DNA of 64,000 bases from a virus: the IMG/VR virus record IMGVR_UViG_3300028840_005153, positions 1 through 64,000 of that record, one strand, 5' to 3'. A model generated the notes under the pieces. That model saw only the letters and a list, made by a program, of their open reading frames with translations, ran no database searches and had not been told where the DNA came from. Shown piece by piece: positions 585-58,791 of this stretch (position 1 is the stretch's first letter; the number at the start of each line of letters is the position of its first letter). The position numbers and the translations under genes were made by a program.

Positions 585-1685
585 ATGGCGAAAGAATCGA
601 AAGTTGGATTTGCGAAACCTGCTAATGGGAAAGTGGTCCACATTGTTGTCGACGGCCTTCAGGCTTGCGATAAGAAAACCACTTTGACTGCTGATCCTGA
701 ATTGCAAATTACTTCGGTAACTTGTAAGAAATGTCAGCGCTTTGCTTTTTATAAGGAAATCCTTGTTAAAGGGCAAAAGCAGGAAGAGAAATCCACAAAG
801 GGCGATTCGAAGAAAAAATCTTCCAAGCCGAAGAAAAAGGTTGTGGATGCGCCTAAAAAAACGCCGGAAGAAATTGCCGATAAAAAAGCGGCAAAGGAAA
901 AAGATGAAGTAAAATCTCCCGGTCCTGTTAAACATACGAAAGTAAATGTTAACAGGAAAGAAAAGCGCAATCATGCAAAACTTGTCGCCGCTACTCAAGA
1001 GTCGCTTCTTGAGGTTCTTCTTCCCTTCCAAAAAGAAAAAATCCATGAAATTTCAATCATGCGCATATTTGAGGAAGCTCAAACTCATTTGCGCCAAATG
1101 CTTATGGATGCTTGTGAAGGGCAGGAAGAAAAAGATTATTTGAAAAGCCATTGGACGCTTGATTGGCGTATATTTACTCAGGCGTTTGAGAAAATTGGCT
1201 TCGCTAAATTGCGCGGCAAAGATCCTGACAAGGGACGCGTGGTTCTTTTCTATAGCGAAAAAGCAGAAAAGTCAAAGACTAAAATTAGGCGTCGCAATAA
1301 TAGCGGTTCAAAGAAAACGGCTCGCGTTATTAAACGCCGCTCCAAACCTAAAGATAAGGCGGAAGAAGAAAAGAAAACGGGTCGCGTTATTAAACGCCGT
1401 TCAAAGAGTAAAGATAAAGAAAAGACGGTCACCAAAAAGCTCAAAGATAAAAATGCTTACGGTCATCGCGAAGGCTCAATGGCGGCGAAAATTGATGAAA
1501 TGCTTTCGGAAGGTTTTATCCTTAAGGATGCCGTCGGAATTATTTCTAAAGAATTTAATCGATCAGATATAAAAGCGCGAAGAAAAATTTTGGCAGCTAT
1601 TAAATACCTTTCGCGTGAGTTGGGTATTAAAATCGAAGTAATAATGCAGGGAAGTCAAGAAGATGATTTTTATAAAATAGTTTAA
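585..1685 (+). CDS. Lys/Arg-rich hypothetical protein (N-terminal H/C motif, possible C-terminal HTH)
   Basis: AAAGGAGG RBS places start at 585; internal 60-bp duplication encoding RVIKRRSK twice. Confidence 0.75.
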   Translation: MAKESKVGFAKPANGKVVHIVVDGLQACDKKTTLTADPELQITSVTCKKCQRFAFYKEILVKGQKQEEKSTKGDSKKKSSKPKKKVVDAPKKTPEEIADKKAAKEKDEVKSPGPVKHTKVNVNRKEKRNHAKLVAATQESLLEVLLPFQKEKIHEISIMRIFEEAQTHLRQMLMDACEGQEEKDYLKSHWTLDWRIFTQAFEKIGFAKLRGKDPDKGRVVLFYSEKAEKSKTKIRRRNNSGSKKTARVIKRRSKPKDKAEEEKKTGRVIKRRSKSKDKEKTVTKKLKDKNAYGHREGSMAAKIDEMLSEGFILKDAVGIISKEFNRSDIKARRKILAAIKYLSRELGIKIEVIMQGSQEDDFYKIV

Positions 1686-1716
1686 TTATACGGGGGAATT
1701 TACTTCCCCCGTATAA
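1686..1716 (+). other. Strong hairpin without U-tract preceding hammerhead
   Basis: TTATACGGGGGAA / TTCCCCCGTATAA 13-bp stem. Confidence 0.75.
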
Positions 1717-1717
1717 A

Positions 1718-1786
1718 CCCGAAACGCGGCTTCGGCCGCGTCGTCGCGAGGTGGTGCTCGTGGCCTGACGATGGGAGCCATCGCAG
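1718..1786 (+). ncRNA. Type II hammerhead ribozyme, copy 3
   Basis: CCC-GAAAC (GAAAC 1721-1725); stem III GCGGC-TTCG-GCCGC; GTC 1740-1742; stem I GTCGCGAG/CTCGTGGC loop GTGGTG; CTGACGA 1765-1771 then T-GGG pairing with the 5' CCC. Confidence 0.88.
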
Positions 1787-1814
1787 AAAAACATCTTTCA
1801 AAAGGAGGAGAATT

Positions 1815-56889: not shown

Positions 56890-56892
56890 AAA

Positions 56893-57453
56893 ATGACTCT
56901 CGAACTCGTTACTTTCAATAAAGTTAAAGATTTCCTTCAACTTGAGAGAGAGGAGAGTAGTTATCCAGAATTAGCTATCATTGCGCCTTCGGTTGTTTCA
57001 GCGATAGAAAATTTTATTGGAAGATTTTTAGAACAAAAGGAAAGAACCGAAGAGTTTTTAATTGGAAGTATTGCTACCCGTTTCATTGATTTAAAAGGCA
57101 TTCCAATTGTTTCCGTTTCTTCTGCTTCAGTTACTGAATTGGGAGATAGTGATACGCTTACTGAAAATGAAGACTTTATAATTTCAAACGGTGGCATTGA
57201 ATTACTTTATACTTCCTTTAAAAGATGCAAAGTTTCCGTTACTTATACTGGAGGTTATGCTGCCGATAATGTTCCAGAAGATATTCAAAGGGCGGCATTA
57301 CTTCAGACAGTTTATGAGTATCAATCAAAAGATTATGTTGGGGCAAGTTCAGTTACAACTGAAGGTGGTTCAATTCAACGCCCTCCAATTGGTTTGTTGA
57401 AAGAGGTTCGAAGACTTTTGGATAACTACAAGCATCCGGCGCAAATAGTATGA
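56893..57453 (+). CDS. Head-tail connector (gp6-like)
   Basis: LVT...VK.FL, V.YTGGY....VP.DI..A, V..LL..Y. Confidence 0.85.
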   Translation: MTLELVTFNKVKDFLQLEREESSYPELAIIAPSVVSAIENFIGRFLEQKERTEEFLIGSIATRFIDLKGIPIVSVSSASVTELGDSDTLTENEDFIISNGGIELLYTSFKRCKVSVTYTGGYAADNVPEDIQRAALLQTVYEYQSKDYVGASSVTTEGGSIQRPPIGLLKEVRRLLDNYKHPAQIV

Positions 57454-58043
57454 TACAAGCGGAAATTAAAAATCTTCGAGAGATCGATGAGTATTTGGAT
57501 ACACTTCCAGAGGAAACCCTTGGAGATGTTAAAAGGGTTTTTGGAAAGTATATTCTAAAGGCTCACGCTATTGTTCAAAGAAATACTAAATGGAGGTTAA
57601 CGAAAAGAACAGGTGCCTTATCAAGAAGTATTCAAACTCAAGTTAGTGGCACAAGCCTAAAAGATGTCAATGCTTCTATTTTTTCAAAATTCAAAGTAGG
57701 TGGTGCGGAAGTAATTTATGCGCCAATTCATGAATATGGCGGAACAATCAATGCGATAAATAAATACGTGAGAGTTCCTGGTGGCCCATATTTAAATATT
57801 CCAACCGCTTCAAATAAAACTCCGGCTGGAGTTATGATTCTTTCGGCAAGGGAAGTATTTATGGCGACCGGTTATGTTCGAAGAACAAGCACAGGAAAGT
57901 ATGGAGTTTTCATTATGAATACAATGATGTTTGTTCTTGTAAAAAGAGTTCATATCCCACCTCGTCTTGGAATGCGAACGGCAGTAGATCGGCAAATTTC
58001 TCCGATGCTTAGGGAATTGGTCGACACAATAGGAGAAGAGTAA
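57450..58043 (+). CDS. Neck/tail-completion protein (HK97 gp10-like)
   Basis: RTG.L.RSI, YA.IHEYG, V.IP.R. Confidence 0.8.
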   Translation: MIQAEIKNLREIDEYLDTLPEETLGDVKRVFGKYILKAHAIVQRNTKWRLTKRTGALSRSIQTQVSGTSLKDVNASIFSKFKVGGAEVIYAPIHEYGGTINAINKYVRVPGGPYLNIPTASNKTPAGVMILSAREVFMATGYVRRTSTGKYGVFIMNTMMFVLVKRVHIPPRLGMRTAVDRQISPMLRELVDTIGEE

Positions 58044-58540
58044 TGGGCGATACACTTGTTACAACAATCCTTGACGAAATAGAAAATCGCCTTGGAAACA
58101 TTACTACTGCAAATGGTTATTTTTCTTCCGTTGATGGCGTTATCGATCGTGGGAAATTAACGCCTTGGGATGGGAAAGACCTTCCAGCGATAAACCTTTG
58201 GTCGACTGGTTTTGATAACGGAAGATCAGAGTATGGAGATGAATTAAGACAGATCAAAGTATATATTGAAATTCATGATAAAACTCGTGATGAAAATTTT
58301 GTAGATGTTGCCAATAAACTCGCGGCCGATGTAGTCACGGCAATATGCCGTTCAACTGCCGCTCCAAAAGTTTCAGATGATCCTTCTCATGATCTTGGAA
58401 GTATAGTCGAAGATATACTTCTTGATGCTGTAGATATGATAATTGGAGAAGGGCAAGCACCCTTTTGTGGAGCACTCTGCCGCTTTACAGTAACAGTTCG
58501 CGCAAGTCTTATGGACATGTTTAACATAGTAAACATATGA
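58043..58540 (+). CDS. Tail terminator-like protein
   Basis: I...L..IT.ANGY, LPAI; position. Confidence 0.7.
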   Translation: MGDTLVTTILDEIENRLGNITTANGYFSSVDGVIDRGKLTPWDGKDLPAINLWSTGFDNGRSEYGDELRQIKVYIEIHDKTRDENFVDVANKLAADVVTAICRSTAAPKVSDDPSHDLGSIVEDILLDAVDMIIGEGQAPFCGALCRFTVTVRASLMDMFNIVNI

Positions 58541-58791
58541 TAAAATACGGCACGATGCTTACTTACCCTCCTCTTCAAAAGGAAAGACTTTATCGAATTT
58601 TAAAGGGACAGTATTGCGGAGGAGTAATTACGAATAGGGAAGATATTGTTGTTCGAACTGCGCCATGCTTTTTTTATATGGTAGGAATAAAAATTAAATT
58701 TATCGAGGCCTATAAAATAACCCGAGTAATAAAAAGGAGGAAGGGATGGGAAAGAAAAAAGCGAAACAAATTAAACTTTCGGTGTGCATGA
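58537..58791 (+). CDS. hypothetical protein
   Basis: ATGA-coupled ORF; RVIKRRK. Confidence 0.5.
   Translation: MIKYGTMLTYPPLQKERLYRILKGQYCGGVITNREDIVVRTAPCFFYMVGIKIKFIEAYKITRVIKRRKGWERKKRNKLNFRCA

Follow-up and report, generated by a model that had tools for sequence, protein, structure and literature searches.

A short basic peptide motif shared by recombination, repair and replication proteins of an uncultured phage, and an acidic domain as its candidate reader

Introduction

Why do a dozen proteins of one phage carry the same six-residue basic peptide, and is there a partner that reads it? The question is raised by an uncultured phage known as a single 76,048-bp virus record (IMGVR_UViG_3300028840_005153, called G000 in the genome comparisons), of which the first 64 kb form the stretch of DNA under study, here called the window. 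The peptide, R-x-I-[KR]-R-R (denoted the tag), had been noticed in an initial annotation of the window, which placed it mostly at protein termini, outside catalytic folds and away from the structural proteins, argued against A-rich codon bias as its source, proposed shuffled proteomes and orthologues as the check, and suggested that it docks many enzymes on a common hub. Here we report that the tag is a protein-level short linear motif under selection for the peptide, and we describe an acidic three-helix domain as a tentative candidate for its reader.

A defined motif on DNA-transaction proteins

The called proteins of the 76-kb genome hold 20 copies of R-x-I-[KR]-R-R on 12 proteins (Table 1), whereas 300 per-protein shuffles averaged 0.11 copies and never exceeded 2. 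A six-frame scan with the wider pattern R-x-[IL]-[KR]-R-R gave 22 matches on the + strand, on which nearly all window genes lie, and none on the - strand. Every Ile-containing copy is in frame with a long + strand open reading frame (ORF), and the sole out-of-frame match, RSLRRR at 2410 inside 1815-3248, is taken as chance. As a second null, controlling for basic runs, we considered the residues flanking the [KR]RR triplets (n=39). Ile stands directly before 24 of them (binomial P 8e-17, Ile being 8.3%) and Arg three residues ahead of 23 (P 4e-19), while Lys follows in 15/39 and Ser in 5/39. These fixed residues indicate a defined motif rather than a basic smear; position 3 of the tag is Ile in 24 of 29 G000 copies.

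The placement of the tag is equally distinct. Eleven of the 20 copies lie no more than 5 residues from a protein end and 15 no more than 15, where uniform placement in the same proteins (10,000 trials) gave on average 1.3 and 3.5 copies, and at most 6 and 10. Wherever a Pfam domain is known, the tag is outside it. The carriers are DNA-transaction proteins and the structural proteins are spared: 19 copies are in genes before 44 kb and one after (Fisher P 4e-4), with TerL at 44.4 kb and the structural genes following it, and none is in the last 12 kb of the genome. The early region is the more basic in composition (K 10.9%, R 6.6%, compared with K 6.0%, R 4.4% in the late region). No tag is present in the G000 single-stranded-DNA-binding protein (SSB), polymerase, primase or clamp loader.

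Synonymous codons differ at all six positions, with Ile encoded by ATT in 5 copies, ATC in 6 and ATA in 9, and Arg by AGA, AGG, CGC, CGT and CGA, that is, by both codon families. The two copies in the GC-richer gene 585-1685 read CGC GTT ATT AAA CGC CGY, and most others AGA AAA ATH .. AGA AGA. Five copies, all C-terminal, finish 3-8 nucleotides ahead of the next start codon, some with AGGAG; the other 15 have no start codon in the 20 nucleotides after them. This free codon variation argues for selection on the peptide, and the use of different codons for the same peptide in copies of G000 and of its relative G001 indicates that they did not arise by recent DNA duplication. Selection acts on R-x-I-[KR]-R-R as a short linear motif of the protein.

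The observations of the initial annotation are thereby confirmed: the motif is shared by unrelated proteins, concentrates at their termini, lies beyond Pfam-defined domains and is accounted for neither by A-rich codons nor by composition-matched shuffles. The only copy in the structural region falls in an ORF, 58537-58791, that is not confirmed as a gene, so that the RVIKRR reported there is present on a doubtful protein. The comparison with orthologues, described next, showed the motif kept at orthologous termini and extended it to a whole clade.

Conservation and genome-specific spelling

RecA relatives were found at 80 loci in IMG/VR, and 16 relatives were read as whole records. The comparisons below cover 14 non-redundant RecA loci of a tagged clade and 30 sister loci, and, at the level of genomes, 8 tagged and 9 untagged. 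The tag is found at the same termini (the N-end of RecA and the C-ends of UvsY, resolvase and SbcC) in 14/14 non-redundant relatives of this one replication-module clade, and the N-ends of DnaB and of the DUF3150 protein are also among the orthologous termini that bear it. The 30 sister loci and nine sister genomes are without it. Orthologous ends keep the tag at RecA identities of 41-56%.

Genome-wide, [RK]-x-I-[KR]-R-R occurs 20, 6, 6, 7, 15, 12 and 2 times in seven tagged genomes and not at all in the eighth, G003, and 0-1 times in the nine other relatives, with shuffle means of 0.03-0.24. The looser [ILV][KR]RR gives 9-27 copies in the eight tagged genomes versus 1-6 in the nine others (Mann-Whitney P 3e-4).

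The difference between strict and loose counts reflects the way in which the tag is spelled from genome to genome. It is R-[KV]-I-[RK]-R-R in G000, K-K-[IL]-K-R-R in G004, R-K-I-K-R-R in G007 and G010, K-K-[IVL]-[KR]-R-R in G009 and K-[LV]-[KR]-R-R in G003. G001 has mostly R-K-I-T-R-R, with Thr at position 4 in 10/22 copies; when Thr is allowed, this genome holds 16 copies versus 0.22 expected, and their codons vary widely. Such concerted respelling of many proteins within a genome points to a single co-evolving reader, and is harder to derive from unspecific charge.

Homology to the 16 relatives is limited to the replication/recombination module, with next to no counterparts there for the terminase, capsid and tail genes. 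As only the replication module is common, the clade is one of replication modules joined to differing structural modules. A blastn search with the terminase-to-tail region gave no match among deposited phages. In prokaryote genomes, RecA relatives were found on contigs of metagenome-assembled genomes of five unrelated taxa (Sulfuricurvum, Paceibacterota, Nanoarchaeota, Desulfobacteraceae and Woesearchaeota).

An acidic domain that accompanies the tag in the relatives compared

The SSB of the window is gp32-like (gp32 Pfam domain at residues 95-248) and bears a strongly acidic element C-terminal to this core, a second copy of which is found in the polyampholyte protein 13806-14558 (Table 1). 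The SSBs of tagged relatives have one or two such acidic mini-domains after the gp32 core, with poly-Asp/Glu linkers between them. An AlphaFold2 (AF2) model of the domain on an orthologue (L031) has three helices at a predicted local distance difference test score (pLDDT) of 89. The domain is present in 8/8 tagged versus 0/9 untagged genomes, and in 14/14 tagged versus 0/30 untagged non-redundant RecA loci. Correspondingly, an I, L or V precedes [KR]RR in 48/78 cases in domain-bearing loci versus 14/94 elsewhere (Fisher P 2e-10).

Pfam has nothing for the acidic domain and Foldseek gave no match in the PDB at E <= 0.001. VIA-align returned middling helical matches, to the T4 endonuclease VII C-terminal domain (Z 7.6), the Rho N-terminal domain (Z 5.0), SAP domains (Z 4.1-4.8) and the CtsR C-domain (Z 4.7), which are too weak for a fold name. 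The domain is also rare: 1.84 billion proteins yielded 49 representatives at E <= 1e-3, a good number of them scaffolds like 13806-14558 with three tandem copies, or proteins that by eye resemble the phage SSB type. A folded, rare domain that occurs in tandem on putative SSB-like and scaffold proteins fits an SSB accessory hub. A search of viral contigs with the domain returned, among the matches listed, only known loci, and a search of viral contigs with one of the representatives, P0014, only two short, distant loci.

Complex prediction for the SSB acidic domain (residues 272-348) with the RecA N-tail (1-42) gave a score of 0.00, which weighs neither way. There is an anecdotal correspondence at a turn of the domain, which has Gln in G001, where position 4 of the tag is Thr, and Asp or Glu in most genomes; G003 (Ser) and G006 (Asn), which keep mainly Lys or Arg at position 4, do not fit it.

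Three of the representatives (P0010, P0014, P0021) have 2-3 tandem acidic modules behind a different N-terminal domain, which by eye is of the DUF669 type of phage single-stranded DNA (ssDNA)-binding proteins. If this resemblance is right, the acidic module would be an SSB accessory module in more than one SSB family. The gp32-like SSBs of some relatives (L024:4923-5975, L060, L092) end in ..ESDIPF, ..NDEIPF or ..EEDDLPF, like the bacterial SSB tip, and those of other relatives, as well as the window SSB, end in a Cys-rich segment and a poly-Arg tail. In the gp32-like family, the end of the SSB is thus an interaction cassette that can be swapped.

Tag carriers and their genomic context

Family searches define a replication/recombination module with a DnaB-like helicase, Toprim primase, gp44-like clamp loader, Pol III alpha, gp32-like SSB, RecA/UvsX-like recombinase, 5'-3' exonuclease, and SbcD together with a split SbcC/Rad50. 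A UvsY-like mediator and a RusA-like resolvase were weak matches within this module. Positions of the tag, of the acidic domain copies and of the AAA/DUF3150 module are collected in Table 1.

Table 1. Tag copies, acidic domain copies and the AAA/DUF3150 module in the window
Feature	Position and strand	Details
AAA/DUF3150 module	1.8-5.4 kb, +	classic AAA ATPase 1815-3248 (PF00004 E 6e-19), DUF2997 3341-3595, DUF3150 4534-5445
p585 family, protein 585-1685	1278..1400 +	TKIRRR 1278, RVIKRR 1323 and 1383; Lys-rich linker
DUF3150 protein 4534-5445	4546..4563 +	REIRRR, residues 5-10; DUF3150 domain from residue 24
Cys-rich p5611 family, protein 5611-6054	6007..6051 +	RKIRRR at 6007 and 6034, closing the protein
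108-residue Cys-rich protein 9325-9651	9328..9645 +	RKIRRR 9328, RFIRRR 9367, KQIKRR 9601, RVIRRR 9628; two per end
DnaB-like helicase, N-terminus	12149..12166 +	truncated M-I-R-R-R-K
Second acidic domain copy, polyampholyte scaffold 13806-14558	14115..14279 +	hidden Markov model (HMM) of the domain, E 9e-18
Protein 16742-17185	16748..16765 +	Leu variant RKLRRR, residues 3-8
Protein 17124-17672	17214..17231 +	RFIKRR, internal (residue 31); no orthologue found; functional status uncertain
Protein 19111-19818	19339..19812 +	RRIRRR 19339 internal; RQIKRR 19768 and RKIRRR 19795 C-terminal; start MRRRK
UvsY-like protein 25592-26080	26060..26077 +	RKIRRR, final six residues
Acidic three-helix domain, gp32-like SSB 26231-27436	27056..27265 +	residues 276-345; net charge -34 over 70 residues
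RecA/UvsX-like recombinase	27509..27547 +	tandem RVIKRR x2, residues 3-15; RecA domain match 161-303
5'-3' exonuclease 28838-29794	28841..29785 +	RKIRRR 28841 and RTIRRR 29768, one per end; exonuclease N-domain residues 17-182
RusA-like resolvase candidate 30163-30951	30922..30939 +	RKIKRR near C-terminus
SbcC/Rad50 C-terminal half 36077-36703	36683..36700 +	RKIKRR, final six residues
Protein 41189-42061	41282..41299 +	weak copy GRIKRR, residue 32; weak sigma-70 region-4 match and KTSC domain
Unconfirmed ORF 58537-58791	58723..58740 +	RVIKRR; only copy in structural region; overlaps ribosome-binding region of gene 58746-59948

The RecA of all clade members has one or two copies at its N-terminus. 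An AF2 model gives the window RecA N-tail (residues 1-52) a pLDDT of 25-33, but with a mean of 53 the model is poor throughout, and disorder of the tail is thus weakly supported. The C-terminal copies of the other recombination proteins recur in their orthologues: those of UvsY end in KIKRRKR, KIKRR, LKRRK or SIRRR, those of the resolvase have the tag at the C-end in G001, G007 and G010 and at both ends in G009, and those of SbcC end in RKIKRR.. in G007 and in GLKRR in G001. At N-termini, the DUF3150 orthologue of G009 begins MPAIRRRK and the DnaB-like orthologue of G003 MKLKRRK. The 16742 family has its tag at the N-end in G000 and a C-terminal RKITRR in G001; with the tag on opposite ends in the two genomes, it behaves as a portable module.

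The two families richest in tags have repeated copies. In p585 the RVIKRR copies at 1323 and 1383 are part of a 20-residue tandem unit, and orthologues in G001, G004, G006, G007, G009 and G010 have 1-3 copies in the same linker. The p5611 family has 2-4 tandem C-terminal copies in G001, G003, G004, G006, G007 and G010, and one G009 protein has 6. An Atlas search gave a weak DUF3489-like lead for the p585 C-terminus and no named match for p5611, and BLAST detected no resemblance of the p585 C-terminal domain to that of 13806-14558.

Several details of the initial annotation need adjustment in the light of these data. The DnaB copy is real but truncated, with no room for the first Arg, and the copy in 16742-17185 is the variant with Leu in place of the fixed Ile. 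The peptide assigned to TerS is present in a weak form, GRIKRR; TerS is a putative label for 41189-42061, which matches sigma-70 region 4 weakly and has a KTSC domain. The tags at the C-ends of UvsY and the resolvase are as described, on proteins whose labels are weak PHROG matches (phrog_231, E 8e-5, for UvsY).

Other features of the region were noted in passing. In the wider family, most RecA orthologues, with or without the tag, have a conserved basic-aromatic C-tail K-[RK]-K-x-R-[YF] (28597-28621 in the window; examples are RKRKPRY, KRKERF and RKKRF, exceptions L005 and L101). The Pol III alpha homologue (22218-25541) has a uracil-DNA-glycosylase-superfamily domain at its C-terminus (residues 984-1088, E 4e-10). 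The SbcC/Rad50 homologue is in two parts, an N-half with the zinc hook (32840-33793) and the C-half, separated by a 339-residue gene, SbcD (34932-35840) and a small ORF. Two block polyampholytes are encoded: 13806-14558 has Lys blocks of the (KKG)n type alternating with poly-Glu and the acidic domain, and 32364-32723 has Lys-rich ends and an acidic centre. It is possible that both products are scaffold or histone-like proteins.

A second shared tail, K-R-K-[IL]-D-[TV], is strictly C-terminal and found on the AAA ATPase (3228-3248) and the DUF3150 protein (5425-5445). As K-R-K-[IL]-D-x it is kept on both proteins in tagged relatives and also on the ATPase of G002; in G009 the pair changed together to K-R-A-[IL]-D-Y, and a number of small G013 proteins have R-[RK]-[IM]-D-x as their end. 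Judged by sequence pattern, R-x-I-[KR]-R-R is distinct from this tail: its copies are found at other places than C-termini too, and relatives that have kept the module lack it.

Proposed mechanism and alternatives

We propose that the tag may act as a portable address label, carried in disordered end segments or linkers by proteins of recombination, repair and replication. The labelled set would comprise the RecA/UvsX-like recombinase, the UvsY-like mediator, the 5' nuclease, the resolvase, SbcC, the DnaB-like helicase and the DUF3150 protein, with multiple copies on two zinc-finger-like proteins, those of the p585 and p5611 families, and its members would dock on one phage-encoded acidic reader. 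In such a contact two or three Arg residues could form salt bridges and the fixed Ile could fill a small hydrophobic pocket. The likeliest reader would be the acidic three-helix domain, in this comparison limited to the tagged clade, on the SSB and on 13806-14558. This would concentrate the tagged enzymes on SSB-coated ssDNA, with the folded acidic domain on the SSB and the linear basic motif on its clients, and avidity would come from tandem copies of both tag and acidic domain.

Both the docking and the identity of the reader are what we infer from the motif, its enrichment, placement, conservation and spellings, and the co-occurrence of the domain. That one shared protein partner reads the tag is the best supported of the readings and a substantial possibility, though we stop short of calling it probable. 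The acidic domain of the SSB and scaffold is the leading candidate for that partner, and we assign it the role tentatively. The full picture, an SSB interactome of reversed polarity in which an acidic module on SSB and scaffold and a tag copied to every recombination/repair enzyme, respelled per genome, make up a phage-private hub on ssDNA, possibly a condensate, is rather doubtful as a whole and is offered as a working model.

Several observations weigh against it. The domain-bearing loci form one side of one branch of the RecA tree (Shimodaira-Hasegawa-like approximate likelihood-ratio test (SH-aLRT) 94, N-tails left out); with this single origin there are no independent contrasts, and the co-occurrence of tag and domain may be plain co-inheritance. 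A sub-clade without the acidic domain (L054, L057, L059, L068) begins its RecA with ME(K)I[TR]RR, so that at least this copy is independent of the domain. A partner from the host may also have to be considered. The most tag-rich proteins are encoded within the AAA/DUF3150 module, which points to another reader. The tag holds a KRRR-type core, which binds and slides on DNA in vitro (PMC4797294). Finally, untagged relatives have unspecific polybasic tails at the same ends, with a mean net charge of the RecA N-extension of +2.5 in untagged relatives versus +8.4 in the tagged clade, and of the last 12 residues of UvsY of +3.5 versus +6.1. The tag looks like a sharpened, multiplied form of an older polybasic tail, and binding to polyanions without specificity is probably its ancestral role, perhaps still the chief one.

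The last two points belong equally to the alternative that survives best, in which the tag is a DNA anchor or 'molecular sled' that binds DNA, the nucleoid or RNA directly and without regard to sequence, and slides with no protein reader. The [KR]-R-R-[KR] core resembles that of the adenovirus peptide pVIc, and three or four contiguous basic residues stand on a free end in many copies, as the counts for a following Lys (15/39) and for terminal placement (11/20) show. All carriers act on DNA, and the arrays of 3-6 copies in p585 and p5611 resemble multi-hook DNA binders. There is also a phage precedent, in that the phi29 terminal protein takes the replication machinery to the nucleoid by means of a basic domain, and functional nuclear localisation signals (NLSs) are present on phage terminal proteins (PMC4974454). 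By analogy, some DNA affinity of the tag is almost certain. However, sled activity is reported to tolerate variation in sequence (PMC4797294), and such an activity leaves unexplained the near-invariant Ile and first Arg, the strict Arg-Arg (never Lys-Lys) and the concerted spellings. Moreover, the SSB, polymerase, primase and clamp loader bind DNA and have no tag, and nine sister genomes manage without it. We regard direct binding as the sole function as a serious rival, if on balance the less likely reading.

A reader within the AAA/DUF3150 module is unlikely. Here a Cdc48/Ycf46-like ATPase or its partner would read the tag to remodel, load or strip enzymes, much as arginine-rich motifs of p97 cofactors and the recognition of a basic C-terminal tail by ClpX might be taken as analogues. 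The module is present in the window and in 8/8 tagged genomes, encodes the two tag-richest families (p585, p5611) and the tagged DUF3150 protein, and the K-R-K-[IL]-D-x ends of its ATPase and DUF3150 protein share their K-R-K-I half with K-R-K-I-K-R-R. However, the module does not predict the tag, as the ATPase is found in 5/9 and DUF3150 in 4/9 untagged genomes, and its own tail varies independently of tag spelling, both module proteins of G009 ending in KRA[IL]DY.

Clamp clients classically bear short terminal peptides, and the terminal placement of the tag recalls them. The initial annotation named the product of 14659-15441 as a clamp and thus as a possible hub; it is extremely acidic (net charge -35) and adjoins the gp44-like clamp loader. 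It has no match to a family or in the PDB, the clamp label following from position and size, and BLAST detects it in only 4/7 tagged relatives. The Pol III alpha homologue, which would be an obligatory clamp client, has no tag at either end in G000, G001, G002 or G003, the G001 homologue of the putative clamp itself begins MALKRRSKKK, and the tag, with a single aliphatic residue and no aromatic position, is missing the paired hydrophobic/aromatic core that clamp-binding motifs have. Docking on this protein is therefore very unlikely. The idea of a common hub as such gains indirect support, since genome-wide spellings are better explained by one co-evolving reader, so that the earlier interpretation is partly supported.

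That the tag has no function of its own, as a by-product of purine-rich codon bias, of Shine-Dalgarno overlap or of a spreading DNA cassette, is scarcely credible: the five copies close to a start codon and the Lys/Arg-rich early region would suit it, but composition-keeping shuffles yield 0.11 copies where 20 are observed, 15 copies are far from start codons and some are N-terminal or internal, codons vary at six positions, and the motif is confined to the coding frame and kept on orthologous ends at the RecA identities given above.

Other known signals were considered and rejected. An AT-hook has an R-G-R-P core, which is absent here, as is any fixed Gly or Pro. A twin-arginine translocation (Tat) signal does not suit copies at C-termini and linkers that are followed by Lys, Asn or Ser and by no hydrophobic stretch. 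Nor is the tag a copy of the SSB N-terminus, which is MARRLKREKGK in the window and an unpatterned polybasic stretch in relatives, none of them R-x-I-x-R-R. Furin/kexin sites, kinase consensus sites and the ClpX C-motif 2 would not fit copies at both termini and in linkers.

If one six-residue peptide does suffice to bring a dozen enzymes to a single site, this reveals how an uncultured phage lineage wires its machinery for recombination and replication, and the pair of tag and reader would offer a simple handle, transferable to other proteins that are to be recruited to ssDNA or to one another. In the spellings that differ between genomes, nature provides an experiment on how a linear motif and its reader co-evolve, and the address-label idea is well tested in a clade for which a concrete candidate reader exists.

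Comparison with known systems

Linear motifs that dock proteins on a hub are known as a class. [quoted passage not shown]

Several systems share single aspects with the tag. The client peptides of sliding clamps (bacterial QL[SD]LF, the PCNA-interacting peptide (PIP) box and the C-termini that bind T4 gp45) are hydrophobic or aromatic and always include that of the polymerase. Like them, the tag is a short terminal motif on unrelated DNA enzymes that is proposed to serve one hub; unlike them, it is polybasic and the polymerase lacks it. The C-terminal tip of bacterial SSB (D-D-D-I-P-F) organises many genome-maintenance enzymes on SSB-coated DNA through one peptide-to-pocket contact. One short contact for many enzymes is also what we propose here, with polarity and chemistry reversed: the basic peptide would be on the clients, and the window SSB has no IPF tip.

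The adenovirus peptide pVIc, GVQSLKRRRCF, has the functional core KRRR directly preceded by a hydrophobic residue, carries cargo and binds DNA of 30 bp at 0.2-0.35 uM in 2 mM NaCl (PMC4797294, PMC4740752). The tag is likewise a mostly terminal peptide in which a hydrophobic residue precedes a K-R-R-R-like core, is portable between cargos and is predicted to bind DNA. It differs from sleds, which are reported to tolerate variation in sequence, in its fixed Ile and Arg, in its genome-specific spellings and in its occurrence on a dozen bacteriophage proteins. In phi29, a basic NLS-like N-terminal domain of the terminal protein places replication at the nucleoid (PMC4974454; Redrejo-Rodriguez 2012, cited there). 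The likeness is that of a basic NLS-like element on a phage replication protein; the phi29 element, however, is a helical domain of ~70 residues on one protein, compared with a six-residue motif on many, and there is no protein-primed replication here, the phage having DnaB, a primase and Pol III alpha.

The closest system in function, by analogy, is the gp32 hub of T4 (PMC11551737; Krassa et al. 1991, cited there). The basic N-terminal B domain of gp32 mediates cooperativity, and the C-terminal A domain serves to recruit UvsX, UvsY, gp59 and Dda, besides regulating RNase H (PMC11551737). The window encodes an SSB of the same family with a basic N-terminal and an acidic C-terminal region, and the tag carriers largely correspond to UvsX, UvsY, RNase H and helicase-associated proteins, the partners of gp32 (PMC11551737). 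In T4, however, a linear element on the SSB binds folded surfaces of its partners (residues 248-270 on Dda, for example), whereas in the arrangement proposed here a folded acidic domain on the SSB would receive a common linear basic motif on the partners.

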